Below are positions 1-61,687 of a stretch of DNA of 64,000 bases, piece after piece. The notes beneath the pieces were generated by a model. That model ran no database searches, was not told the DNA's origin, and saw only the letters and a list, made by a program, of their open reading frames with translations. Within the stretch, counting starts at the first letter, position 1. Each line of letters opens with the position of its first letter. The position numbers and the translations under genes are program-made. Origin of the DNA: Escherichia virus TH43. The stretch lies in sequence record MT446414.1; one strand, 5' to 3'.

Positions 1-207
1 GGCTAACAAAGCTCTTGGTGGTGATTGTATTCAATTATTCAACACAAGACAAGAGGCTCGTCTTGCTAAGAAAACTATAAAAGCTACAAAAGCTTTAGGA
101 ATCGCTGAAAAGGTGGAGATTCATCGTTGGATTGAAAATATCCAGAACAGTGCTGGATTCATATCCAGCAAGGTTTATTACTAGTTGGTAGTAGATATGA
201 TAACTCT

Positions 208-230
208 CAAATGTATATACAGTATAAGAA
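208..230 (+). promoter_or_regulatory. candidate phage-specific promoter motif (AAATGTATATACAGTATAAG)
   Basis: member of the recurrent TAATGTA(T)ATA motif family; lies upstream of the first ORF. Confidence 0.35.
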
Positions 231-236
231 TATTGT

Positions 237-584
237 ATGAAACAGGAGAGAGTTATGTTAGATTTGAGTAAAGTGGCCCCGCCATCTGAAGAGATTAGCA
301 AAGCTAAAGTTATGCAGCAGTTCTATCATCGTGATATGCTTGGTCGTTATATCAAGAATCGTGATGTTGTTGCATGGTCTATTGGAAATCAAGGTTATCT
401 TCTCAAAGTGTTGCAAGTTACTGGCTCAACAGCCAAGCGTGTTAAGGTGTATGACCCTGAAATGGGGCGTTCTAAGTCTGTAGACCCACAGAACTGCATT
501 GTTATTACCCAGCAGGTCATGGACAACATTGCTCGTAACGTAGCCAATTCAACCAACTTAGAAGGAGAGACTCCTAATGCATAA
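237..584 (+). CDS. hypothetical protein (more likely start ATG 255 after RBS AGGAGAG)
   Basis: ORF track; RBS at 243-249. Confidence 0.5.
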   Translation: MKQERVMLDLSKVAPPSEEISKAKVMQQFYHRDMLGRYIKNRDVVAWSIGNQGYLLKVLQVTGSTAKRVKVYDPEMGRSKSVDPQNCIVITQQVMDNIARNVANSTNLEGETPNA

Positions 585-1143
585 TAATGTCTTCGACTTA
601 CCTGAACTAACACGAGTGGGTTCTAGTAACCCATTCTCTACAACTGACTCCTCTATCTCTCGTCTTGAGGGAATGAATAAACTGATCAGCGGTAACAGTC
701 TAGAGCACATCCTATGCGGTGTGCAGGCTAACCTTGAGCTTCTACACATCAAAGCAAAGAATTACCACTGGAACGTCTCTGGAGCTGGTTTCCAAGGTGT
801 TCATGGTATGTTCGATGAATTAGAAGACTATGCTCGTGAAACAGGAGACCGAGTAGCTGAGCGAATGCGTTATCACTGTATCAAAGTGGATGCAACAGCT
901 AGTAGCTATCTTAGTTGTGCTTGGTTCAGAGAAGGTAGTGCTGATCTCGACATGGACGGTATGCTTTCCGACATGTGCATGACTCTGATGTGTATCATTG
1001 AAAAGATGGACGAGTTTGATTCAGACTTGTGCACCTATCCAGTAGACCAGAGTATGCTTCAAGAAATTAATGAAGGTCTTGGCAAGTTCTGTTACTTCGT
1101 CAAGAGCAACATGTCCCACTCTAGTGGTGACGTGTCTTACTAA
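577..1143 (+). CDS. hypothetical protein
   Basis: ORF track; RBS GGAGAG upstream; start overlaps previous stop. Confidence 0.55.
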   Translation: MHNNVFDLPELTRVGSSNPFSTTDSSISRLEGMNKLISGNSLEHILCGVQANLELLHIKAKNYHWNVSGAGFQGVHGMFDELEDYARETGDRVAERMRYHCIKVDATASSYLSCAWFREGSADLDMDGMLSDMCMTLMCIIEKMDEFDSDLCTYPVDQSMLQEINEGLGKFCYFVKSNMSHSSGDVSY

Positions 1144-1164
1144 TCAAACCTCCGCCCTGTCTCT

Positions 1165-1386
1165 TTGTTTAAGAGGTGGGGCGAACTTCTTTATAAGGAT
1201 GTGAATATGTTTTCAGCAATCGTATGGTCTGTGTGGGCAATTCTTGTTGGTGGTATCGTTTATCTGGCTCAGAAACAGATGCTTAAAGAAAATCCGAATG
1301 ATGCTAAACCCATTAAACATGGCAGCATTGCTCTGGTAATTTTCTCTGTTGTCATTCCTTTCCTTCTCCACCTGTTGACTGCATAA
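1165..1386 (+). CDS. small membrane protein (alternative start 1207); paralog of the next ORF
   Basis: hydrophobic helices; RBS AAGGA before ATG 1207. Confidence 0.45.
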   Translation: MFKRWGELLYKDVNMFSAIVWSVWAILVGGIVYLAQKQMLKENPNDAKPIKHGSIALVIFSVVIPFLLHLLTA

Positions 1387-1395
1387 GGGTTTGAT

Positions 1396-1581
1396 ATGAT
1401 TTCACTGATTGTGTGGGCCGTGTGGTCGTTAATAGTTGGTACTGTTATATATAAAGCTCGAAATTTAGCAATTAAAGAAAACCCAGCAGAAGAGGATGTT
1501 AAAGCTATCAAGCTAGGTAGTGTTGTTCTGGTACATTTTGCTATAACACTACCTCTTGTTATTATTCTTTGTATGCTGTAA
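1396..1581 (+). CDS. small membrane protein; paralog of 1165..1386
   Basis: shared VW-x-W..LVGG..Y.A....KENP...K.IK.GS pattern. Confidence 0.45.
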   Translation: MISLIVWAVWSLIVGTVIYKARNLAIKENPAEEDVKAIKLGSVVLVHFAITLPLVIILCML

Positions 1582-1593
1582 GGAACCTGAAGA

Positions 1594-1770
1594 ATGAAAC
1601 TAAAACTCCCTGAAGAGTTGCAAGCACACGCCATTATTGTTAGTGGCTGTGTGATGGGTCTTGGTCAGACAAAGAAGATTGCTCATGACTTAGCAAAAGG
1701 TCAGTATAAATCTTTTATTGTTGTTCCTGCTACCCAGCGTCATATCAACCTGTTTATTAACAAGGAATAG
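1594..1770 (+). CDS. small hypothetical protein (58 aa, below track cutoff)
   Basis: manual translation; RBS AAGGAA 9 nt upstream. Confidence 0.35.
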   Translation: MKLKLPEELQAHAIIVSGCVMGLGQTKKIAHDLAKGQYKSFIVVPATQRHINLFINKE

Positions 1771-1771
1771 A

Positions 1772-2047
1772 ATGAGTAAAGTAATTAAGTTTTACAGTAA
1801 TTCATGTGCTCCGTGTGCAGCTATGGCTCCTGTGTTTAAGAAGGTTGTGGCTGACTACAGTGTAGAAGTTGAAGAAGTAAATATCTCTGAAGGTGATGGT
1901 CGAGAGCGAGCCATTGAATACGGTGTTCGCAGTATCCCAGCCTTTGTCGTCCCTGATAAGAATAGTGGTGCTCATTATAGTTTATCAGGTATGCAAACTG
2001 AATCTAATCTCCGTGCATTTTTAGACACGGCTCTGAAAGGTATTTAA
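1772..2047 (+). CDS. thioredoxin-fold redox protein (CxxC)
   Basis: N-terminal KFYSNSCAPCAAMAPVF motif; RBS AAGGAA. Confidence 0.6.
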   Translation: MSKVIKFYSNSCAPCAAMAPVFKKVVADYSVEVEEVNISEGDGRERAIEYGVRSIPAFVVPDKNSGAHYSLSGMQTESNLRAFLDTALKGI

Positions 2048-2048
2048 T

Positions 2049-2264
2049 ATGGAAAAGAAACCTTGGATTACTTTTTGGGTAGTTAAGTGGTTTAATTTTG
2101 ATAGCACAATCCCTAGTTTCTCCTCATATACAACACGGAGAGAGGCTCGCCGCTTTAAGCGAGCTTTAAAAATTGCTAACACTGGCGCTTCTAAGATTAC
2201 AATTCAGAAAGGGATTGAAACAGAAAGTGGAAGCAACATGATTTATAAAAAGATTCATTATTAA
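2049..2264 (+). CDS. hypothetical protein
   Basis: ORF track. Confidence 0.4.
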   Translation: MEKKPWITFWVVKWFNFDSTIPSFSSYTTRREARRFKRALKIANTGASKITIQKGIETESGSNMIYKKIHY

Positions 2265-2278
2265 GGAAGAGTTCAAGG

Positions 2279-2929
2279 ATGAATGAACAATTACAAGCAA
2301 CACTAATCGAAGCAATGGGTTCTGATAAATCTGTTGTTAATGCAGCTCGAGTTTCCTTTGGGGTTACTCGTGAAGGAGAGTTAAATGAACGAGATGAACG
2401 CCTTATCAAATTCCTTGCCAGAGAAAAGCATGTCACACCATTCCGTCATCCGACAATTAGCTTCCGATGCAAAGCGCCAATCGCAATTGCGAGACAGTTG
2501 GGCAAGCATCAAGTTGGATTCTCGTGGAACGAAATGTCCCGGCGGTATAAAGATGGAGCAGTTGAACTCTTCATCCCTAAAGAGATTTTTGAAAGACCTT
2601 CGGACCTCCATGCAGGTGCAGGGAATCTCCTCACCACAGGAGCACAAAACTCTGCACTAGTTCTGATTAATCGAGCATATGAAACAGCTCTTGAGTCGTA
2701 CGATGAATTGATTAAGTTCATTGCTCCAGAACAAGCTCGATTCGTATTACCTCAGGGTATGATCACTGAGTGGGTATGGACTGGTTCTCTATATGGTTGG
2801 TCAGAGTTGTGTCGTCAGAGATTGTCAGACCATGCTCAGTACGAAGTACGAGTGTTCGCATCAACAATTGATGAAGAGCTTCGTAAAATATACCCAATCT
2901 CTTGGGATGCATTACGTGAAGCCCACTAA
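2279..2929 (+). CDS. thyX: flavin-dependent thymidylate synthase ThyX-like protein
   Basis: AARVSF...TPFRH...FRCKAPIAIARQ...SWNEMSRRY resembles the ThyX core; canonical RHR appears as KHQ. Confidence 0.6.
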   Translation: MNEQLQATLIEAMGSDKSVVNAARVSFGVTREGELNERDERLIKFLAREKHVTPFRHPTISFRCKAPIAIARQLGKHQVGFSWNEMSRRYKDGAVELFIPKEIFERPSDLHAGAGNLLTTGAQNSALVLINRAYETALESYDELIKFIAPEQARFVLPQGMITEWVWTGSLYGWSELCRQRLSDHAQYEVRVFASTIDEELRKIYPISWDALREAH

Positions 2930-3101
2930 AGCATGTAGCTTCTGTCGAAAGCAGAAGCTTCTTATCAATTTCAAACTGAATGAGGAAACAGGTTTGGGTC
3001 ATGCTTTTTGTCATGATTGCAGGCACTACCTCGAACAGAAGCAATACATAAACTGGTTGCATTACTACAACCCTAACATCTATAATCACAAGGTTATCTA
3101 A
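2906..3101 (+). CDS. small zinc-ribbon protein (CxxC...CxxC); overlaps thyX 3' end; start uncertain
   Basis: ORF track 2793..3101; Cys pairs CSFC and CHDC. Confidence 0.35.
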
Positions 3102-3581
3102 ATGAAAGCTATTTTTGAAGGAAGGGAGTATGATGTTCCTGATTGGGTTAAATACATAGCCCGTGACTATGATAATCTGGTTTGGGCATATGGAGACGTA
3201 AGACCTGTGTTTAATGAAAACACTGGTAGTTGGTCTAACATGTCAAAATTGCCAGGATTTATTCGGGCACTTGGCTCTTCTAGTCGTCCTGTAGGTTTCG
3301 CTGCTGACTCACTTGTTGAGGTTGGTGTTGAAAAGGAAATAGACAAGCCAGAAACGATTTGGGTTTTATCTTCGAGTACCCCAATCAAAGGGAGTCGTGG
3401 GATTTCCTTCTATGTTGAACCGGTCGCTTACTTCAAAAATAAGCCAACCATCAACGCTCTGATGTTAAAGAACATTCCTTATTCACAAGTTGCTACTCTG
3501 TTAGATAATGGTACAGTGCTTGTTGAGAATAATGGGACAAATCAAATCTTTTATGATTTAGAAGAAAGGGTTTTGGAATGA
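3102..3581 (+). CDS. hypothetical protein
   Basis: ORF track. Confidence 0.5.
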   Translation: MKAIFEGREYDVPDWVKYIARDYDNLVWAYGDVRPVFNENTGSWSNMSKLPGFIRALGSSSRPVGFAADSLVEVGVEKEIDKPETIWVLSSSTPIKGSRGISFYVEPVAYFKNKPTINALMLKNIPYSQVATLLDNGTVLVENNGTNQIFYDLEERVLE

Positions 3582-3787
3582 GAATCTACAAATTAAGTCT
3601 ATGCTTTAGTGAATGGACTCACGACACAGAAGTAAAAGCAACTTATTACAAAGACCGTCCTACTCGTGGTCAGCTGATGCTAGATGGTATGGGTAGTGAT
3701 GCTTGTGATGTTGTTCTTCAATACGGAGCTGTTCAGGACTCTTCTCCCGGATATGTTTGGAAACTTGGGATTATTGAGGTTAAGTAA
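3578..3787 (+). CDS. hypothetical protein
   Basis: ORF track; ATGA overlap with previous gene. Confidence 0.45.
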   Translation: MRIYKLSLCFSEWTHDTEVKATYYKDRPTRGQLMLDGMGSDACDVVLQYGAVQDSSPGYVWKLGIIEVK

Positions 3788-4000
3788 ATGAAAGGTTTAG
3801 TATTAGGAAAACATCGATTTACTTTCCGTATCTCAGACAGGAATCCATACCCCACCAAGATTGAACCTTATGAGATTATCTCTGAAGTGTTTATCTGGCC
3901 TTGGCAAAGCATCTATGATGTTGCCCTTAAATCCAAGAAGAAGCTGATACCTGTTGGTATTTGGGCTGATGTTGATTTAATTAAAATCGAAAAGGTTTAA
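3788..4000 (+). CDS. hypothetical protein
   Basis: ORF track. Confidence 0.45.
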   Translation: MKGLVLGKHRFTFRISDRNPYPTKIEPYEIISEVFIWPWQSIYDVALKSKKKLIPVGIWADVDLIKIEKV

Positions 4001-4001
4001 A

Positions 4002-4322
4002 ATGATTAATGATAATACATTTAGGACTGGTAACGGAAACGAGATTAGTCCTGCTGAAGTGATTAAACGACACAGAACGCAGATGCTTATCCACTCCTAT
4101 TTGTATTATTGGTTGGATGACCCAATCTGGTCTGATGATAAATGGCAACAAGTGGCTGATGACTTAACCACTTTGCAAGAGATGTATCCTGAGCCTATTG
4201 GATTCTTTGATTCAGAGTTCAATGGGTGGAATGGCTCTACTGGTATGCATCTCCCTCATGACGAGCGTATTGCTTGTATGGCTACTGAAGTATATCGTTT
4301 ACATAAGGACAAATCTATCTGA
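4002..4322 (+). CDS. hypothetical protein with NAD-ligase domain Ia-like motif
   Basis: HSYLYYWLDDPIWSDDKW...LQEMYPE resembles the LigA N-terminal Ia domain (recalled). Confidence 0.45.
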   Translation: MINDNTFRTGNGNEISPAEVIKRHRTQMLIHSYLYYWLDDPIWSDDKWQQVADDLTTLQEMYPEPIGFFDSEFNGWNGSTGMHLPHDERIACMATEVYRLHKDKSI

Positions 4323-4500
4323 AATGTTTTAAATGTGAATCCACTCTTCTCCATCTGGACTCGAAAGTAATACGAGAGCTTGCTAAAGGCTCTCCGACGA
4401 AAGGGAAGAATAAGAAATTTGTCGAAGTTAAGGTTATAGGTACTCATTGTTCAGAGTGTAAATCCTGTAGCTACACGTATGAAGAACTTGGAGGTAGAAA

Positions 4501-5238
4501 ATGAATCGCAGAGAAACTCGTAGAGAAGCACGGAAAGCAGCTCGTCGTGGTGAACAGGTGACTAATAAAGGTAAACGTGAGTATCAAGAAGTTGTTCTTG
4601 CTAAGCCTGTAGTCCCTCAGAATCAGTTTCAATCCGAACTGCTCAATGCTATCAAGACTAAACAAGTAGTCTTTACGGATGCTCCTGCTGGCTGTGGTAA
4701 GACCTATGTTATCACAACAACAGTTATTGATGCTCTGAAAAGTGGAAAGATTCAAAAGATTATCCTAAGCCGGCCTGCTGTTGGTATGGGTAACTCACTT
4801 GGATTACTTCCCGGTGGATTGCGTGAGAAGTTCGAACCTTACCTGATGCCTATCGTTGATGTTATCACTCAGCGTTACGGTAAAGGCTTCTACGAGTGTC
4901 AAATTGGTAATGGTAACATAGAGTTCGTACCTCTGGAATACCTCCGTGGTCGTTCGTTCAATGATGCTATTGTGATTGTTGACGAGTTTCAGAACACCAC
5001 CCCTGATGAAGCATATTCTATTATGACTCGTCTTGGTGAAACCTCTCAGATGTTCTGTATGGGTGACACTAACCAGCACGACATGCGTGGTGAGAGTGGT
5101 TTGGAATGGGCTACTGACTTCATTGACAAGCACAACCTGTTTGAGTTTGCTGCTTTGGTTGATGGTGAGTCAGATGATATTGTTCGTTCAGGTTTCTGTA
5201 AAGCTATTGTTAAAGCAATGGAATCTGAAAAATCCTAA
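4501..5238 (+). CDS. phoH: PhoH-like ATPase
   Basis: Walker A GCGKTY; Walker B VIVDEFQN; PhoH-like LEYLRGRS block. Confidence 0.75.
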   Translation: MNRRETRREARKAARRGEQVTNKGKREYQEVVLAKPVVPQNQFQSELLNAIKTKQVVFTDAPAGCGKTYVITTTVIDALKSGKIQKIILSRPAVGMGNSLGLLPGGLREKFEPYLMPIVDVITQRYGKGFYECQIGNGNIEFVPLEYLRGRSFNDAIVIVDEFQNTTPDEAYSIMTRLGETSQMFCMGDTNQHDMRGESGLEWATDFIDKHNLFEFAALVDGESDDIVRSGFCKAIVKAMESEKS

Positions 5239-5239
5239 A

Positions 5240-5256
5240 CATAATGTATACTCCTT
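5240..5256 (+). promoter_or_regulatory. candidate phage-specific promoter motif (ATAATGTATACTCC)
   Basis: TAATGTATA-like motif 27 nt upstream of the 5283 gene. Confidence 0.35.
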
Positions 5257-5282
5257 AGTGTACACTGATATATTAAGGAGTT

Positions 5283-5600
5283 ATGATGACTGATAAGGCA
5301 AAACGTGATTATGCACAAGAACGAAGAACTGCAATCGCAAGGGGTGAAACCGGCGTTGGTAGCAAGAGCGGAGATGCTCAGCGCCACCGTGCACGTCGCA
5401 TCGTTGAAAAGCGCGATGGAAAAGCTGCTGTCCGAGGTAAAGATGTTGGACATAAACGATCAATCAAGTCGGGAGGTTCTAATGCGTCAAGTAACTTACG
5501 TGTTGAATCAGTCTCTGGAAATCGCTCGAACGGCGGCAAAAGTGGAGATCGTGCTGGAAAATCAGCAGGCGGTCGCAAAGGAGCTTTAAGCTCAAGTTAA
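5283..5600 (+). CDS. basic Gly/Ser/Arg-rich protein
   Basis: RBS AGGAG before ATG 5283; terminator follows. Confidence 0.5.
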   Translation: MMTDKAKRDYAQERRTAIARGETGVGSKSGDAQRHRARRIVEKRDGKAAVRGKDVGHKRSIKSGGSNASSNLRVESVSGNRSNGGKSGDRAGKSAGGRKGALSSS

Positions 5601-5604
5601 TATA

Positions 5605-5636
5605 AGGCTACCCATTTCGGGTGGCCTTTTCTTTTA
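5605..5636 (+). terminator. rho-independent terminator
   Basis: AGGCTACCC-ATTTC-GGGTGGCCT hairpin followed by a T-tract. Confidence 0.6.
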
Positions 5637-5656
5637 TATAATCTAAGGTAGTAAAT

Positions 5657-5908
5657 ATGTCTAAAGTAACTTATATCACTGTAACTGATTTCCTCCCTTC
5701 TCAGAATGTAACTGAGAGCTACACTTTTCCTGTAGAAAATGTTACAAGCTCTGTTGAAATGATTCAGTTTAACCCAACAACAGCTCGCACTAATGTAGCC
5801 CTTCGTGGTGCTAATGGTAAGTTCATCTCCTTCCGTGATAAGAGTGTTCCTAAGCGTATTGCTAAGTCTATTGAAAACCTGAAACCTTTCCCTAACTTTG
5901 GTGCATAA
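5657..5908 (+). CDS. hypothetical protein; paralog of the next ORF
   Basis: shared TARTNV.LRG..GKF.S.RD...NLKPFP. Confidence 0.5.
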   Translation: MSKVTYITVTDFLPSQNVTESYTFPVENVTSSVEMIQFNPTTARTNVALRGANGKFISFRDKSVPKRIAKSIENLKPFPNFGA

Positions 5909-6167
5909 TATGAAGATCAGCTTAATCCAAATCCGTGATCATCTTTTTAATGGTGATGCTCAGACTCATGATTACAAGGTTAATCAAGGACAACACCCTA
6001 CCAACCACCTGATTGGAGGGATTTCTTTATTGCCTAATAAAACAGCACGAACTAATGTAATGATTCGTGGTAAGGATGGAAAATTCCTTTCTTATCGTGA
6101 TCTTGAAATCTGTGCTGATGTTCGTACAGCTATGAACAATCTGAAACCTTTCCCGACAGTGGAGTAA
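5898..6167 (+). CDS. hypothetical protein; paralog of 5657..5908 (possible start 5910)
   Basis: shared TARTNV.IRG.DGKF.SYRD...NLKPFP. Confidence 0.5.
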   Translation: MVHNMKISLIQIRDHLFNGDAQTHDYKVNQGQHPTNHLIGGISLLPNKTARTNVMIRGKDGKFLSYRDLEICADVRTAMNNLKPFPTVE

Positions 6168-6170
6168 GTT

Positions 6171-6524
6171 ATGCCAGTACCTCAACGCCTAGAACGTCAC
6201 TGCGTTCTCAAATGGGACAATATTCATGACAACCTCTCCATTCAAGAGTTTCGTCAGTTTATTGAATTAACAGCGAAGATTAACCGAAACCAACCAGCTC
6301 GAAACTTTGTAGTGGTTAGTGATAAGTATCCTGAGTTGTATGAGCAGGTGTGGGGTATGAAACTTGCACAGGTTCAGAGAAACAGCAATGAACGAAGAGA
6401 AACTCGTAGACAGCGAGCAGAAGATATTCCAGCAGTCTTTTATGTGGATGAATTAACGGAATCCTATGAACAGTTAGATATTGTCGAGGATAACCAAGCG
6501 TTCACTGATTTAATATACCAATAA
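6171..6524 (+). CDS. hypothetical protein
   Basis: ORF track. Confidence 0.5.
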   Translation: MPVPQRLERHCVLKWDNIHDNLSIQEFRQFIELTAKINRNQPARNFVVVSDKYPELYEQVWGMKLAQVQRNSNERRETRRQRAEDIPAVFYVDELTESYEQLDIVEDNQAFTDLIYQ

Positions 6525-6537
6525 TTATAAGGAGTGG

Positions 6538-8385
6538 GTGATGGATAACCCTGATAAGTTACCTTTCATAACGGAGATGACAGTCGCTGATATAATCTCA
6601 AAGCAGGCGAAGCATGGCGTCAACTTCCACAGAAGAAACGCTCGGTGGTTTGTTCACCTTCTCAAAGAGATTATTGTCAATATTGATAAAGAACTGATTC
6701 CTCTCCTCCCCAAAATGCGGGTGGATGGTTCAACTTATTCGAAACCTTTTAAGAAGTCAGGTGCTTTACAGAAGTGGCCTCAGCTCTATTGTGACAGAGT
6801 TGGTCTTAAAAGAGAAGATATCGGTGGGGCGTTTACTTGCGTTGAGTATGTAGACTTCGACCCATCGAAAGATGCACGTATCAAAGAAGCCTTGATGGAC
6901 GAAGGCTTTATTCCTCCAGAGTGGAACACATCCAAGAAACCTTGGAATACTTACGAAATCCGTAAAGCGATGAAGAAGTATGGCACATATGCTGCTTGGT
7001 ATTCTGCTTGGATGCGGGGAAACGCTAAAGAAAAACAGACAGCTGAGATGATTGACGCTGACATTCGTCGGTTCTTGGATAAACACTTCCGTTATCACAC
7101 TGTCAATTACATGAAAGCGTACGTTAGTGGTTTAGGTTTGAATCCGAACAGGAAGAAGCCTGTAACCTTTGATGAAATTAAGAAAGCTTTAGCCATGTCA
7201 AACAAGTGGCCTACAGCTCCTACAAACCTCGAGGAGACGCTTGAAGAAGGTCTTGGGGGTGAGCTAGGGGGTGTGGGAGGTTTGCTTAAGAGACGTGTTG
7301 TAGCGGCTCACAGGCTTGGCTTGATTAATGGTCTTATAGACAAGGAACGAGAAGATGGTAAGTTGTCCGCCGAAGCTAATAGCTGCGCTACTCCGACATT
7401 TCGTTTTAAACACCGTATTGTTGTTAATATTCCTTCTCGCGGTTTGTTTGGTCACGAGTGCCGCAGTCTATTTCAGTCTGACTGTACCTCAAGTGATAGT
7501 AATCACAATCCTATCATCATTACCAACCATATCCCTGATGGGTGTTACGTACGAAAAGGTACAAACACTATCTACGAAGTGGGAAAACCGGGCAAGAAAG
7601 ACAAACCGATAGGTGCTCTGAAATATTACATACCTTCTGGTCATGAAGTATTTCTTGGTTATGATGGTTCAGGGTTAGAACTGCGTATGCTGGCTCACTA
7701 CCTTATTAAAGAGTGTCGTGAGATGTTGGCAGAGGCAGAACAAGAGAATAACCCAGCTAAGAAACGAGAAGCTGAACGCGGTTTAGCATCTGCCGTATTG
7801 TACAGAGATATTCTCTTACAGGGTGATATTCACTCCCATAACCAGAAACTTGCTGGCTTGCCTACCCGTGATAATGCTAAGACGTTTATCTACGCATTCA
7901 ACTACGGAGCTGGTGATGCTAAGCTAGGTAGTATTGTTGGTGGTGGGGCTGATGAAGGTTCTATAATGAGAGCTAGATTCTTAGCAGAGAACCCTTGTAT
8001 TGCAATCCTTATTGAACGTATGACAGAGAAAGCACAAAGTGGATACATCTACGGTGTTGACGGTCGTCGTATTACAATGAGACGTGACGGTACAGGAAAG
8101 GTCATGACACACAAAGCCTTAAATACGCTCTTACAGAGCGCTGGGGCGATTGTTATGAAGTATGCAATGCTATTCCTCAATAAATGGATTGAGCGTGATG
8201 GTGTTCGTTGTGCGAAGGTTATCGACATGCATGATGAAGGCCAGTTCACTGTACATCGTGAAGATGTTAACAAACTTCGTACTCTCACTGAAGAGTGTGT
8301 TCGTAAAGCGGGTGAATACCTCAAGATGGAATGTCCTCTTGCATCAGATTGTAAGATTGGGCTTAACTGGAATCATACTCACTAA
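6538..8385 (+). CDS. DNA polymerase, family A (Pol I-like)
   Basis: motif A DGSGLELRMLAH, motif B RDNAKTFIYAFNYGAG, motif C MHDE; RBS AGGAG. Confidence 0.85.
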   Translation: MMDNPDKLPFITEMTVADIISKQAKHGVNFHRRNARWFVHLLKEIIVNIDKELIPLLPKMRVDGSTYSKPFKKSGALQKWPQLYCDRVGLKREDIGGAFTCVEYVDFDPSKDARIKEALMDEGFIPPEWNTSKKPWNTYEIRKAMKKYGTYAAWYSAWMRGNAKEKQTAEMIDADIRRFLDKHFRYHTVNYMKAYVSGLGLNPNRKKPVTFDEIKKALAMSNKWPTAPTNLEETLEEGLGGELGGVGGLLKRRVVAAHRLGLINGLIDKEREDGKLSAEANSCATPTFRFKHRIVVNIPSRGLFGHECRSLFQSDCTSSDSNHNPIIITNHIPDGCYVRKGTNTIYEVGKPGKKDKPIGALKYYIPSGHEVFLGYDGSGLELRMLAHYLIKECREMLAEAEQENNPAKKREAERGLASAVLYRDILLQGDIHSHNQKLAGLPTRDNAKTFIYAFNYGAGDAKLGSIVGGGADEGSIMRARFLAENPCIAILIERMTEKAQSGYIYGVDGRRITMRRDGTGKVMTHKALNTLLQSAGAIVMKYAMLFLNKWIERDGVRCAKVIDMHDEGQFTVHREDVNKLRTLTEECVRKAGEYLKMECPLASDCKIGLNWNHTH

Positions 8386-8696
8386 TGATTGATATCAAAA
8401 CTGAAGTTAAATATAATCCCAAGCTCAATTTTGATGCTTGGGCAAAACGGATTCTTGATATACCTCTCCAAGATGTGGGTTACACACAAGTAACCTGCAC
8501 AGCAGAAATTCCTACTCATGGGTTACGTCCGTGGAAAGGCGTATCAGTTGTAGATGTGATAAAAGAGATGGTTAAAAGATGTGCCACTCAGTACGGAGGT
8601 GCATTAGAAGGTCGTCATTTCTACTACACCCGTAAGCAGGAGTCAACACAATACGAAACTTTCATTGAAGTTAACCTCTTTGTGGTGGAGAAGTAG
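8385..8696 (+). CDS. hypothetical protein
   Basis: ORF track; ATGA overlap with polymerase stop. Confidence 0.5.
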   Translation: MIDIKTEVKYNPKLNFDAWAKRILDIPLQDVGYTQVTCTAEIPTHGLRPWKGVSVVDVIKEMVKRCATQYGGALEGRHFYYTRKQESTQYETFIEVNLFVVEK

Positions 8697-8777
8697 TGAT
8701 TAGTTCAGTGGAAGAGTTGAATGGTATTACGAAATGAACTAGTCTTATTGATTAGTTCTTTTTAAGGAGACAAGGAA

Positions 8778-8912
8778 GTGGAAGAAGTAAAAAGTTCTGA
8801 ATGGTGCTTGAAGCAACAAAAGCTCGCACAGGATGAAGGTCGTTTTGAAGACGCTAAAGCTTATGGTGAATTATTTCAAACATGGGTAGAACGAGAGGAG
8901 AAAGCTAAATGA
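8778..8912 (+). CDS. small hypothetical protein (GTG start, 44 aa)
   Basis: manual translation; RBS AGGAGA upstream. Confidence 0.3.
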   Translation: MEEVKSSEWCLKQQKLAQDEGRFEDAKAYGELFQTWVEREEKAK

Positions 8913-9076
8913 TGGACCTGATTCGTAAACCCGCCCCAAAGTGGAACATCTATTACCAAGATTCCACTGGTAAATTTCATAACCAACTGGTTTATACTGA
9001 TGAAGAGCGAGATGAAGTCGTTGCTCAGATTGAAGCAGATGGTGGTACAGTTCTCAAAATCTACGAAAGGAATTAA
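8912..9076 (+). CDS. small hypothetical protein (54 aa)
   Basis: manual translation; TGATG overlap. Confidence 0.3.
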   Translation: MDLIRKPAPKWNIYYQDSTGKFHNQLVYTDEERDEVVAQIEADGGTVLKIYERN

Positions 9077-9078
9077 TA

Positions 9079-9321
9079 GTGACTCTAACCTCTAAAGAAT
9101 TAAAAGAAACTCTGGAAACAACCGAAGGTAAACAACATCTCCTTGCACAGATTCACTCTATGGGTAAGGATACCTTACGTCAAGCTTTGTATGAACTGAC
9201 TACTGCTGTTATCCAGATTGAAGCTAACGCTGAAGAAAGTTTGATTAAGTTAGAAGCTGCTGATGCAGAGATCAATGGATTGAAGGTTCGTATTGCCGAG
9301 CTGGAAACACAAAATAAATAA
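9079..9321 (+). CDS. coiled-coil protein (GTG start)
   Basis: ORF track; terminator directly downstream. Confidence 0.45.
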   Translation: MTLTSKELKETLETTEGKQHLLAQIHSMGKDTLRQALYELTTAVIQIEANAEESLIKLEAADAEINGLKVRIAELETQNK

Positions 9322-9345
9322 GCTACCTTCGGGTGGCTTTTCTTG
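9321..9345 (+). terminator. rho-independent terminator
   Basis: AGCTACC-TTCG-GGTGGCT hairpin plus T-tract. Confidence 0.6.
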
Positions 9346-9359
9346 TATAAGGGGCTGGT

Positions 9360-9752
9360 ATGAAGATTGGCTTAGATTATGACGACACTTTTACAGCGGA
9401 CAAAGAGATGTGGACACATATCATAGGACTTATGAAGTCCCGTGGTCATGATGTTCGTATCGTGACTTACCGATTCGCTGAACCTAATGGGTATACAAAT
9501 GAAGAACTACTGGCAGATGCTGCTAGTCTAGATATCCCGGTTATCTTTTGCAATGGTGTTCAGAAGGATTCTGTTACCCAGAGCTTAGGTTTCTTTGTGG
9601 ATGTTTGGATTGATGACTTCCCTGTTGGTATTCCTAAAATGGACCACCTAGAAGGGATGCTGAAGGGCGTAAGACTTAACGACCTTAGAGCAGCACCTCC
9701 AGTAGAAATAGCTTCTCCTGTGTACTCTGAAGAGCCTCTGGTGATACGATGA
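9360..9752 (+). CDS. HAD-superfamily phosphatase-like protein
   Basis: HAD motif I LDYDDTF and motif IV WIDDF. Confidence 0.5.
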   Translation: MKIGLDYDDTFTADKEMWTHIIGLMKSRGHDVRIVTYRFAEPNGYTNEELLADAASLDIPVIFCNGVQKDSVTQSLGFFVDVWIDDFPVGIPKMDHLEGMLKGVRLNDLRAAPPVEIASPVYSEEPLVIR

Positions 9753-9928
9753 AAAAGTTCCTATGCTGGTCTATTGCCATTGCTCTATTTCTTTGGGTGA
9801 TGGATGCTCTTGGAGATTACAGTAAAGAAGATTGCGAGACTCGAATCTCAAAAGAGTTTAAATCAGAGACCAAGTGGGTTGACGGTCGCTGTTACATCAA
9901 GGATTGGGGGAGAGTCTTATCAAGATGA
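9749..9928 (+). CDS. small secreted/membrane protein (59 aa)
   Basis: manual translation MKKFLCWSIAIALFLWVMDA...; ATGA overlaps. Confidence 0.35.
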   Translation: MKKFLCWSIAIALFLWVMDALGDYSKEDCETRISKEFKSETKWVDGRCYIKDWGRVLSR

Positions 9929-10104
9929 AGAAATACAGCGTATGGTTTAATGAAGAAGAAGAGGGTTTTGATGAAGTTGGTGGTTGGGTTAATATCCTAA
10001 ACACAGACGACATAGAAGAGGCCGAGAAATGCGCCCTAAACTACAACTCTGGATATTATGAAAGAAATTGGGAGCACGATGAAATACTACAAAGTAGTTT
10101 ATAA
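9925..10104 (+). CDS. small acidic protein; paralog of 10672..10839
   Basis: shared VW..E..E...GGW..IL.TDD.EEAE....NY.YYE. Confidence 0.45.
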   Translation: MKKYSVWFNEEEEGFDEVGGWVNILNTDDIEEAEKCALNYNSGYYERNWEHDEILQSSL

Positions 10105-10688: not shown

Positions 10689-10839
10689 AAGGTTTAAAGT
10701 CTGGCTAGACGAAGGGGCTGAATATCCTGAAGGTTTTGGCTGGAGAGTGATTCTGGAAACAGACGATAGGGAGGAGGCTGAAACGAAAGCCGAATCCTTC
10801 AACTACTCATATTACGAGGACACGTACGAGAATGGCTGA
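10672..10839 (+). CDS. small acidic protein; paralog of 9925..10104
   Basis: ORF track 10603..10839; internal ATG 10672. Confidence 0.4.
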   Translation: MAVLSKRFKVWLDEGAEYPEGFGWRVILETDDREEAETKAESFNYSYYEDTYENG

Positions 10840-11452
10840 AGTTTACTTTGCAGGTGATGGTCACCTAGGCCATCGTAACATCTGTAATTTTAGAAAGAAG
10901 TTTAGCAGTATTGAAGAACATGACAAAGCTATCCTAGCAGCTTTTGACCATGTTACTAAACGTGATAAAACTTTCTTTACAGGTGATTGGGTGTTTGAGA
11001 AATACGCACTTGATATTATCGCTGAAGTGAAAGGAGAGAAACATCTTGTCCTAGGAAACCATGACAGATTAGAACTTCTCCCTGATATGATGAAAGTCTT
11101 TAGACACATCAGTGGTGATTATAAGTACAAAGAGTTTTGGGTAACTCATATTCCTATTCACTCTGATGAAATGAGAGGGAAGTATAATATCTATGCTCAT
11201 ACTCATAATTCTACTATTAAAGATTGGAGATACTTTTGTACTTCTATGGAACAAATTGATTATAGAGCTGTATCTCTGCAAGAGATTAGAAAAGAACTAG
11301 AAAGTAGGAAAGAGTGGGTAGCTTCTTTATTACAAAAAGATTATCCAATTACCAGCGAAGTACAAGAGATGTTAAGTAAACAAGCTGAATCTAACTCACC
11401 TTTTCAGAGAACAGTAGAACAAACTAGCTTTAAAGGTCTTTTAGAATGGTAG
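10832..11452 (+). CDS. calcineurin-like metallophosphoesterase
   Basis: GDGHLGH and LVLGNHD metal-binding motifs. Confidence 0.65.
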   Translation: MAEVYFAGDGHLGHRNICNFRKKFSSIEEHDKAILAAFDHVTKRDKTFFTGDWVFEKYALDIIAEVKGEKHLVLGNHDRLELLPDMMKVFRHISGDYKYKEFWVTHIPIHSDEMRGKYNIYAHTHNSTIKDWRYFCTSMEQIDYRAVSLQEIRKELESRKEWVASLLQKDYPITSEVQEMLSKQAESNSPFQRTVEQTSFKGLLEW

Positions 11453-13332: not shown

Positions 13333-13983
13333 ATGAAGAAGAAGACAACACCCACACGCTATCGTATTCATGGCATTCCTATTAAATATTATCCAACCTT
13401 CGATGAATTCTATCGAGAGAACTGGAAAGTTGTGCATCGCTATTTCATGTATGACATTAAAGATTATCACGAAGCAGAGGATGTTGCTCAGGAAGTGTTA
13501 CTGAACGCTTGGCGTTTTGTGTTCGCAAAGCAAGAAGAACTTCTGCTCACTGATGAAAAAGATATTGAACACATGACCTATCGTGTTAAGAATATCATCT
13601 GGTCTATTCGTTCTAATCGTCAGACAGTTGGAGATCGACGTATCTATTCTATTCCAGAGGCTGATATGTTTAGACCTCCTGAGATGAACTCATGGGAAAG
13701 TCCTTTAGAGATTGCGATGGATAAGCATGACTCTACTGGAGACCCATTCTTGGAATCTAGAATCTTTTTCTTCTTCCAAGACTTAAGTGATATTATGGAT
13801 ACCAAGAAAATGGCAAGCATGTTCTCTATGCTCTTCCTTGGAATACCTCATGATCATATTCAGCAGCAGTTAGGAATTTCACACGGAACCTTCTATCGCC
13901 GATATGCAGAGAATCGTGATCTGTATGAAGCTGTAGTAGAGAAGCACTTTGATAAAGAAGATCTTCAAGGGATGATTCAATAA
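13333..13983 (+). CDS. phage-encoded sigma factor (sigma-70 family, ECF-like)
   Basis: region 2-like RYFMYD...[14 protein letters not shown]; region 4 HTH-like [21 protein letters not shown]. Confidence 0.65.
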
Positions 13984-14579
13984 TGAGTAAACCATTAGTA
14001 GTAATTCTGAATGGACCTCCGGGTTGTGGTAAAGACACAATCGCTAATGCTTGGCTAGAATTCACTAAAGAGAACATCGAATTTAAGCCACATATAAAGG
14101 CTTTTAAGGAGCCTATGTACCGAGTTGCTGCTGCTGCATTAGGTATTCCTATTGACGAGTTCATGGAGCTGTATAGCGACCGTGAGTGGAAAGAACGAAG
14201 CCGTCCTGAATGGGGCGGTAAGTCAGTTCGAGATTTAATGATTGCAACTAGTGAGAGCTACTTGAAGCCAATGTTTGGTGACACCTGTATGGGTAAATTG
14301 GCTGTTAGTAGTATCAAACAACAACTGTTAGGACAGAAAGATGTTATCGTCTTCTCTGATGGTGGATTCAAAGCAGAGGTTTCAGAACTGGAAGAACAAT
14401 TCCATGTTCAAGTAGTTCAGATTCTTCGTGATGGTTGCACTTTTGAAGGAGACTCTCGTTCTTACATCGAAGGCAGTCAGAGAAACACATATTACCTAGT
14501 AAACGATTCTACTGTAGAAGATGCAATAGACTATTTAAATTGGATTGTTGTACGGACACGGAGAGATCTCTATGTCTGA
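13983..14579 (+). CDS. P-loop kinase, deoxynucleoside monophosphate kinase-like
   Basis: Walker A GPPGCGKDT. Confidence 0.55.
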   Translation: MSKPLVVILNGPPGCGKDTIANAWLEFTKENIEFKPHIKAFKEPMYRVAAAALGIPIDEFMELYSDREWKERSRPEWGGKSVRDLMIATSESYLKPMFGDTCMGKLAVSSIKQQLLGQKDVIVFSDGGFKAEVSELEEQFHVQVVQILRDGCTFEGDSRSYIEGSQRNTYYLVNDSTVEDAIDYLNWIVVRTRRDLYV

Positions 14580-61273: not shown

Positions 61274-61687
61274 ATGGCTGGGAAACTCCCCAACGTAAGC
61301 AAGAAATTGGCCTACCTCACGTATAAAGAAAACATTGATCTTCTGGTCAAGCTTTATCCGGCTTCATTCAACAAGCAATTCCCTCTTCCTTTGGAGCTTA
61401 ACATCCATAAGGAAATAGCCCGTAAGACCGGTTGGTCAGCGGAGAAAACAAGCATGGTGCTCAACATCTGGACTACTCGTATGGAGTATGTGATGATGGC
61501 CTGTAGCACTGGTAAACGCTTCAAGCTGCACTCTGTAGCTATGAAGATTCGTAGTCCTATTGACCCTGAGCCAATGGCTGGGTTCAGCAGCCGTCTGAAA
61601 TCTTTCCGTGATCGTGGTCGTGTAGTGAAGTTTAAGCACGACTTCTCTTATAAGTTTGGATACGAAGCGTTCCAATTCGTTGTTTAA
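61274..61687 (+). CDS. ProQ/FinO-domain RNA-binding protein candidate
   Basis: LVKLYPASF...PLPLELNIHKEIARKTGWSAEKTSMVLNIWTTRMEY...GKRFKLH resembles the ProQ N-terminal domain (recalled). Confidence 0.5.
   Translation: MAGKLPNVSKKLAYLTYKENIDLLVKLYPASFNKQFPLPLELNIHKEIARKTGWSAEKTSMVLNIWTTRMEYVMMACSTGKRFKLHSVAMKIRSPIDPEPMAGFSSRLKSFRDRGRVVKFKHDFSYKFGYEAFQFVV

Follow-up and report, generated by a model that had tools for sequence, protein, structure and literature searches.

The window analysed here, a stretch of 64,000 nucleotides from Escherichia virus TH43 (record MT446414.1), carries at positions 2279–2929 (plus strand) the gene thyX, whose product is a full-length member of the ThyX family according to three independent profile and fold tests. 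Judged from its sequence, it in all likelihood encodes a working flavin-dependent thymidylate synthase (ThyX or FDTS, EC 2.1.1.148), which would convert deoxyuridine monophosphate (dUMP) to thymidine monophosphate (dTMP). The protein belongs to a subfamily with the motifs K-H-Q and S-R-R-Y, which may constitute a mechanistic variant of FDTS: the task of arginine 80 would have passed to an arginine at position 89, supplied by the adjacent subunit, and the way in which the ADP portion of flavin adenine dinucleotide (FAD) is contacted would have been rebuilt. The gene is of an already annotated kind, and the label "thymidylate synthase" that it bears in over 90 related phage genomes is very probably right.

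A full-length ThyX with a variant motif

The open reading frame (ORF) of thyX comprises 216 codons, with the stop codon included in the coordinates given above, and is preceded by a putative ribosome-binding site, the Shine-Dalgarno-like AAGGAAG (2263–2269, plus strand), which lies 9 nucleotides 5' of the ATG and overlaps the TAA stop (2262–2264) of the preceding small ORF. The product, as read directly from the sequence, contains ARQLGKHQVGFSWNEMSRRY, and its translation includes IAIARQLGKHQVGFSWNEMSRRY. It is of canonical length, lacks extra loops and shares every residue with a protein of phage vB_EcoP_HC-25922 annotated as "thymidylate synthase" (100% identity).

The Pfam profile PF02511 (Thy1) matches the protein over positions 1–190 of its 191 (E = 5.1e-43; 147.5 bits against a threshold of 24.8), the NCBIfam equivalog TIGR02170 (thyX) gives 123.2 bits, where 87.9 is the trusted cut-off, and PHROG 85 (thymidylate synthase) matches with 3e-61. 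The best PDB sequence matches found with HMMER are all ThyX proteins, among them 6j61 from Thermus (6.5e-29) and 1kq4 from Thermotoga maritima (4e-26). A monomer without ligands, modelled by AlphaFold2 from a 40-sequence alignment, reached a mean predicted local distance difference test score (pLDDT) of 95.8 and a predicted TM-score (pTM) of 0.89, and T. maritima ThyX makes up all of the top 50 PDB matches that Foldseek listed for it (TM-scores 0.80–0.84), including 8reo and 1o26 at about 0.83 and about 33% identity. The full-length Thy1 match, the TIGR02170 score above cut-off and the fold match bear out the proposal made in an earlier note on this DNA that the protein fits the ThyX core.

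The same note had pointed out that the position of the RHR motif reads KHQ, and this too was confirmed by direct reading and by HMMER and MAFFT alignments to known ThyX proteins. The variant motif (2504–2548, plus strand) reads K76-H77-Q78-V-G-F-S-W-N-E-M-S87-R88-R89-Y90, the first three codons being AAG CAT CAA (2504–2512), and was placed by HMMER alignment to 1kq4 and 6j61. Its equivalents in the T. maritima enzyme are R78-H79-R80 ... S88-G89-R90-Y91, with one residue fewer. HMMER pairs K76-H77-Q78 with R78-H79-R80 and sets an extra residue before the equivalent of Ser83, turning RHRX7S into KHQX8S; MAFFT puts the insertion at the same point, between T. maritima positions 82 and 83.

Among the 120 nearest homologues drawn from 5.8 billion proteins, which extend down to about 52% identity, 119 carry K-H-Q and one K-S-Q, and S-R-R-Y is present in all 120. 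At the level of 50%-identity clusters, 6928 representatives match TH43 ThyX at E ≤ 1e-3 and 345 at E ≤ 1e-30. RHR was found in none of the best 150 of these 6928, which instead read [K/R]-[H/S]-[Q/K/T/H/E...], mostly with X8 spacing, and then S-R-R-Y. On this sequence evidence KHQ is to be seen as a clade signature, neither a lesion nor a one-off deviation, and [K/R]-H-[Q/K/T]-X8-S-R-R-Y as the signature of a large subfamily in which it replaces R-H-R-X7-S-x-R-Y.

With K-H-Q-X8-S, TH43 ThyX lacks the literal "ThyX motif" R-H-R-X7-S (Myllykallio 2002, as quoted in PMC2826268). A survey of thymidylate synthase evolution dropped sequences with more than two dissimilar residues relative to RHRX7S (PMC2826268), and filtering of this kind may explain why the KHQ branch receives little discussion. 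Because the motif fails across a large subfamily that includes chromosomal thyX genes of bacteria, it is an incomplete descriptor of the family and not a ground for exclusion. At its four specified positions TH43 ThyX retains the His and the Ser and has Lys as a conservative substitute for Arg78; Arg80 alone is truly lost. To speak of a divergent active-site motif, as the earlier note did, is an overstatement: the charge at 78 and His79 are retained, and the loss of Arg80 goes together with the gain of an Arg at 89.

In several ThyX homologues of the subfamily (P0121, P0132, P0225 and P0265) the loop of the ThyX motif is interrupted by an intein that includes an HNH endonuclease (Pfam Intein_splicing and HNH). 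The insert ends in ...VVHN and is directly followed by S-W-N-E-x-S-R-R-Y, which places the insertion point at about 2519–2522 of the window, between F81 and S82. Inteins tend toward functionally critical sites of proteins.

Active site, cellular relatives and a proposed arginine relocation

For residue counts, 146 sequences of the branch were aligned (MAFFT) with the ThyX proteins of T. maritima (TM0449; 1kq4, 1o26, 8reo) and Thermus (6j61), which share the fold of the TH43 protein and are about 33% identical to it over the full length; T. maritima numbering is used for positions. E144, R147, R174 and Q180 are kept in all 146 sequences, H53 in 144, Q75 in 142, E86 in 143, S88 in 145, R90 in 144, Y91 in 144 and H79 in 130, while position 78 is K in 124 and R in 21. 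TH43 ThyX carries the consensus residue at each of these positions and shares H53, Q75, H79, E86, S88, R90, Y91, E144, R147, R174 and Q180 with the T. maritima and Thermus enzymes. Its S87, R89, Y90, R154, R181, Q73 and E85 correspond to S88, R90, Y91, R147, R174, Q75 and E86, respectively. The differences from T. maritima are R78 to K, R80 to Q, the insertion between 82 and 83, G89 to R and N163 to S; in addition, E58 and R165 are not conserved.

E144 is a residue of the folate site, as is also indicated by the existence of E144R folate-complex structures, and H53 has been assigned to the folate/NADPH site (PMC11940539). Both are present in TH43 ThyX (as E151 and H51), and Lys76 provides a positive charge at the position of R78. 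The latter lies opposite N1/C2=O of the reduced flavin (PMC11940539), and a lysine at this position can supply the charge that the arginine gives there. Hydrogen bonds to dUMP come from R78, R80, S88 and R90 (PMC3498832); S88, R90 and Y91 help to transfer the methylene group, and activation of dUMP is the role of R174 (PMC8316439).

This conservation bears directly on the possibility that the broken RHR has abolished thymidylate synthase activity, leaving a catalytically dead relic or a protein with a purely regulatory or structural role. What speaks for such a protein is only the failure of the literal RHRX7S, a signature that has served as an inclusion filter (PMC2826268). The catalytic positions, however, are near-invariant across the 146 sequences, at identities down to about 40%, and the variant motif is itself conserved, the pattern of an active site under purifying selection; moreover, the HNH inteins sit precisely in the motif loop of some homologues. 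We regard loss of activity as extremely improbable and have rejected a pseudo-enzyme on the grounds of active-site conservation.

The branch is also found in cellular genomes. One genome per bacterial and archaeal species was scanned with two branch-specific peptide patterns derived from 11 sequences, and at least 61 loci of the branch type were obtained. Many of these, with their small unidirectional ORFs, resemble prophages or phage contigs binned into metagenome-assembled genomes (MAGs), and any tally of cellular carriers based on these bacterial or archaeal records would run too high, since many of them seem to hold phage contigs binned with the host. An example of such a phage-like locus is a Prochlorococcus single-cell contig (L029) of 39% G+C content (GC) with small unidirectional ORFs. 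Phage-like loci were excluded as cellular evidence; a locus was kept only if the neighbours scanned were non-phage genes and stood in an order shared by different MAGs.

Four bacterial lineages remained. In Spirochaetia (chromosome OZ251568 and a second MAG with conserved synteny) thyX adjoins pyrD, encoding dihydroorotate dehydrogenase, and a pyrF/pyrE fusion encoding orotidine monophosphate decarboxylase and phosphoribosyltransferase. In four MAGs of Nitrospinaceae it is flanked by genes for an AcrB-type transporter, IspH/LytB and MlaA, and three MAGs of Poribacteria have a KHQ-type thyX with cellular scanned neighbours in conserved order. In five MAGs of Chloroflexota/Dehalococcoidia a 2-oxoacid dehydrogenase operon is its constant neighbour, with identities of 63–98% among the ThyX proteins and 48–90% among the neighbour proteins. 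The KHQ-type proteins of these bacteria likewise pass TIGR02170, and a KHQ-type gene in a cellular chromosome is most simply taken to be the thymidylate synthase of the cell.

The residue that is lost may have a counterpart elsewhere in the motif. At position 80 the 146 sequences of the branch have Q in 89 cases, K in 18, T in 15 and R in only 3 (Gln78 in TH43 ThyX), and at position 89 they have Arg in 142 (Arg88 in TH43 ThyX). In a canonical set from the Thermotoga/Thermus side, RHR with X7 spacing was present in 119 of 119 sequences, and position 89 was G in 81, Q in 22, L in 10, A in 5 and R in one. The characterised viral ThyX of PBCV-1 (A674R; 2cfa, 4fzb; about 217 amino acids), which is homologous to TH43 ThyX (E = 1.3e-8) but much more distant from it than the T. 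maritima enzyme, has Gln at position 89, where TH43 has Arg, and the side chain of this residue can occupy the phosphate pocket of dUMP (PMC3498832). Because the loss of Arg80 co-varies with the gain of Arg89, and in view of the remark on residue 89 of PBCV-1 ThyX, we infer a shift of the phosphate-binding arginine from position 80 to 89, from where it would be contributed across the subunit interface.

A working enzyme of this type would, by homology, be a homotetramer with FAD and with each active site formed by three subunits. In it the reduced flavin would pass the methylene group of methylenetetrahydrofolate on to C5 of dUMP and subsequently reduce it, yielding dTMP and tetrahydrofolate. 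Lys76 would preserve the positive charge of Arg78 near N1/C2=O of the flavin, His77 corresponds to His79, and the arginine at the position of Gly/Gln89 would reach the phosphate pocket of dUMP from the neighbouring subunit in place of Arg80.

The rearranged phosphate-binding region, with R80 lost, R89 gained and one residue inserted, could also be understood as a sign that the protein is a flavin- and folate-dependent C5-methylase acting on a substrate other than dUMP, such as UMP or dCMP. ThyX homologues with altered substrates exist: PolB of polyoxin biosynthesis is a ThyX-like C5-methylase of UMP, i.e. the fold acting on a different nucleotide, a repurposing of the kind that the earlier note had in mind. 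TH43 ThyX exceeds the trusted cut-off for the thyX equivalog, is of canonical length with no extra loops and keeps the canonical residues, and no evidence for a link between it and PolB was found. Furthermore, R174, Q75, E86 and R147 around the uracil and the phosphate are invariant or nearly so, and the Spirochaetia lineage has its KHQ-type thyX among genes of pyrimidine synthesis. A change of substrate of this sort is therefore considered very unlikely.

Several points weigh against a conventional thymidylate synthase nevertheless. Arg80, a direct ligand of dUMP in T. maritima ThyX (PMC3498832), is absent from the TH43 protein, and the co-variation behind the proposed relocation spans two clades and may reflect a single evolutionary event. 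The positions of E58, N163 and R165, which we take to contact the ADP part of FAD, differ in the branch, N163 being S in TH43 ThyX, so that details of FAD binding may be rebuilt in KHQ-type proteins. No solved structure of a KHQ/SRRY member was found, every PDB match that could be inspected having RHR, nor was a published assay of any member found in the searchable literature. Finally, given their reported resistance to restriction-modification systems, Gordonclarkvirinae may use some non-canonical nucleotide chemistry.

Possible base modification and restriction resistance

Gordonclarkvirinae, to which TH43 belongs (see below), are, according to the BASEL study, markedly resistant to restriction-modification systems, with no modification pathway known, and its authors, citing the dCTP deaminase and a nucleotidyltransferase, speculated on DNA that contains deoxyuridine (PMC11990801). 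For kuraviruses, the literature yielded this remark on resistance as the only information on restriction digests or DNA modification. A conserved ThyX argues against a plain replacement of thymidine by deoxyuridine in these phages.

The earlier note had left two options, a genuine though divergent thymidylate synthase or a fold put to another nucleotide-modifying use. In its most specific form the second option would mean that the protein makes a non-canonical pyrimidine nucleotide, for example 5-hydroxymethyl-dUMP via an exocyclic-methylene intermediate released to water, which would be incorporated into DNA, perhaps decorated further, and would account for the restriction resistance. The published resistance is the sole support, and an indirect one, although three further observations can be cited for it: sites for EcoRI, EcoRV, EcoKI and EcoP1I are present, so that their loss does not account for resistance to these enzymes; the protein lacks Arg80 and has a motif loop extended by one residue; and in Escherichia phage StefiGeyer_Bas88 (Bas88), a close relative of TH43, a nucleotidyltransferase gene and a cluster of amidoligase, glutamine amidotransferase, ATP-grasp and gamma-glutamyl cyclotransferase genes adjoin the replication genes.

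The site counts can be set out for the whole window (1–64000). GATC was observed 133 times against 296 expected (z = -9.9) and CCWGG five times against 100 (z = -9.6), and several 6-bp palindromes hardly occur at all (BamHI 0, KpnI 1, SacI 1, NcoI 1, PstI 2, ScaI 2), whereas EcoRI (13), EcoRV (21), EcoKI (9) and EcoP1I (119) sites occur in near-expected numbers. The depletion fits evasion of particular restriction-modification systems, or of Dam- or Dcm-linked ones, by loss of sites. Site avoidance fails to account for the broad resistance that has been published, since EcoRI, EcoRV, EcoKI and EcoP1I sites are present. Since avoidance would be needless if the bases were globally masked, the strong depletion of GATC, CCWGG and many 6-bp palindromes suggests that sequence-specific enzymes see ordinary DNA here, which tells against a modified base.

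The distribution of the variant is a second point against repurposing. KHQ/SRRY occurs in the chromosomal thyX of the four bacterial lineages described above and in phages without the additional genes. Kuraviruses, phiEcoM-GJ1 (Chaseviridae), SeKF_80 (Grimontviridae) and Siovirus ICBM1 all have a ThyX of this subfamily, with KHQ or KHK followed by SRRY (KHK with X7 spacing in ICBM1) and with identities to TH43 ThyX ranging from 100% to 43%; all these genes lie in a replication/nucleotide-metabolism module and are annotated "thymidylate synthase". To our knowledge none of these phage proteins has been tested biochemically. Salmonella phage SeKF_80 has the same grouping of thioredoxin, PhoH, dCTP deaminase and thyX genes as the TH43-type phages. 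In phiEcoM-GJ1 and the SIO1-like ICBM1, which represent unrelated phage families without the kuravirus-specific genes, the ThyX of the branch is encoded among primase/helicase and DNA polymerase genes.

The residues for methylene transfer and dUMP activation (S88, R90, Y91, R174, H53) are intact, and the annotation of Bas88 includes no DNA kinase, no glycosyltransferase and no other enzyme known from hypermodification. The pattern of a hypermodification enzyme built on a thymidylate-synthase-like fold (dUMP/dCMP hydroxymethylase type), i.e. co-occurring modification genes and a variant confined to phages with modified DNA, was thus not found. A base-modifying role of TH43 ThyX is accordingly not what the sequences suggest. 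We consider it improbable that the fold has been repurposed in this way, and equally so that the kuravirus ThyX, fed by the phage dCTP deaminase, makes a modified dUMP derivative for virion DNA that underlies the restriction resistance. Between the two options of the earlier note, the genuine thymidylate synthase is favoured by the profiles, the fold, the active-site residues except Arg80 and the chromosomal genes, and the repurposed fold was left without positive support.

In Bas88, the region that corresponds to the DNA just upstream of the window start (1–10070; also record L064, 125–2664) encodes the dCTP deaminase, a class-II glutamine amidotransferase, a gamma-glutamyl cyclotransferase, two amidoligases/COOH-NH2 ligases and a protein that weakly matches RimK-like ATP-grasp enzymes. 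The "nucleotidyltransferase" of Bas88 (478 amino acids) matches PHROG 12715 only, with no match in Pfam or NCBIfam. These genes of the nucleotidyltransferase/amidoligase cluster are better candidates for unusual chemistry than thyX.

Neighbouring genes and nucleotide metabolism

Bases 1500–6500 of the window are 98.8% identical to Bas88 and match 98 phage records, and by these sequence matches the source is a phiEco32-like (Kuravirus/Gordonclarkvirinae) podophage of E. coli. In the whole genome of Bas88 thyX is the only annotated thymidylate synthase gene, and neither a dUTPase nor a ribonucleotide reductase is annotated in it. The dCTP deaminase of Bas88 (TIGR02274, 104.8 bits against 92.8) ends about 430 bp upstream of the point where the window starts.

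The nearest annotated functional neighbour 5' of thyX encodes a thioredoxin-fold protein (1772–2047, plus strand; Pfam Thioredoxin 1.5e-12, PHROG 22, "thioredoxin domain" in Bas88). A deoxynucleoside monophosphate (dNMP) kinase-like protein is encoded at 13983–14579 (plus strand); it matches PHROG 139 with 4.3e-40 and is annotated as dNMP kinase in Bas88, and searches of Pfam and NCBIfam gave no matches for it. Two further genes encode a PhoH-like protein (4501–5238; Pfam PhoH, and less strongly NTPase domains of AAA and helicase type) and a calcineurin-like phosphoesterase (10832–11452). The earlier note had listed a thioredoxin-fold protein, a dNMP-kinase-like kinase and two phosphatases as neighbours of thyX. 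The thioredoxin-fold gene is indeed adjacent, but the kinase-like gene lies about 11 kb downstream, and neither it nor the supposed phosphatase genes form a tight cluster with thyX; of these phosphatases, one is the calcineurin-like phosphoesterase and the other turns out to be the PhoH-like protein.

In the pathway that these genes suggest, the phage dCTP deaminase would convert dCTP to dUTP, a host dUTPase would produce dUMP, and the phage ThyX would form dTMP, which would then be converted to dTDP by the phage dNMP kinase and to dTTP by the nucleoside diphosphate kinase of the host. The GC of the window is 42.1%, and that of E. coli is about 51%. ThyX would thus top up dTTP for a genome of 42% GC in a host of about 51% GC, shifting the pool toward T.

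Several other ORFs of the window, all on the plus strand, deserve mention. A small ORF at 2916–3101, hypothetical in Bas88, overlaps the 3' end of thyX by 14 nucleotides and appears to be translationally coupled to it; two pairs of cysteines (CSFCRKQ...CHDCRHY) are suggestive of a zinc ribbon. At 4002–4322 a protein of 106 amino acids is encoded which consists of a stand-alone Ia (NAD+-binding) N-terminal domain of NAD-dependent DNA ligases (PF22745, 1e-33; PHROG "DNA ligase"). It is not a ligase by itself, because the adenylation and OB domains are absent, and it may modulate the LigA of the host. The protein encoded at 577–1143 (188 amino acids) has a ferritin/Dps-like domain (Pfam Ferritin, 2e-7, residues 56–99 only; PHROG 3636 "DNA binding protein", 5e-53), and that at 61274–61687 (137 amino acids) a ProQ/FinO RNA-chaperone domain (PF04352, 4e-6, barely at the gathering threshold).

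For the restriction resistance of Gordonclarkvirinae, the consequence is that its cause is to be sought elsewhere than in thyX, e.g. in the nucleotidyltransferase or the amidoligase cluster. For the ThyX family, RHRX7S misses a large branch which is mostly phage-borne yet also cellular, and which motif filters such as that of PMC2826268 would drop. Work on inhibitors and mechanism that has been done with the enzymes of T. maritima, M. tuberculosis and PBCV-1 may fail to transfer to the phosphate-binding region of this branch. The practical import of this is very small, and the remaining interest lies in a structurally uncharacterised branch of flavin-dependent thymidylate synthases with an apparent relocation of an arginine.

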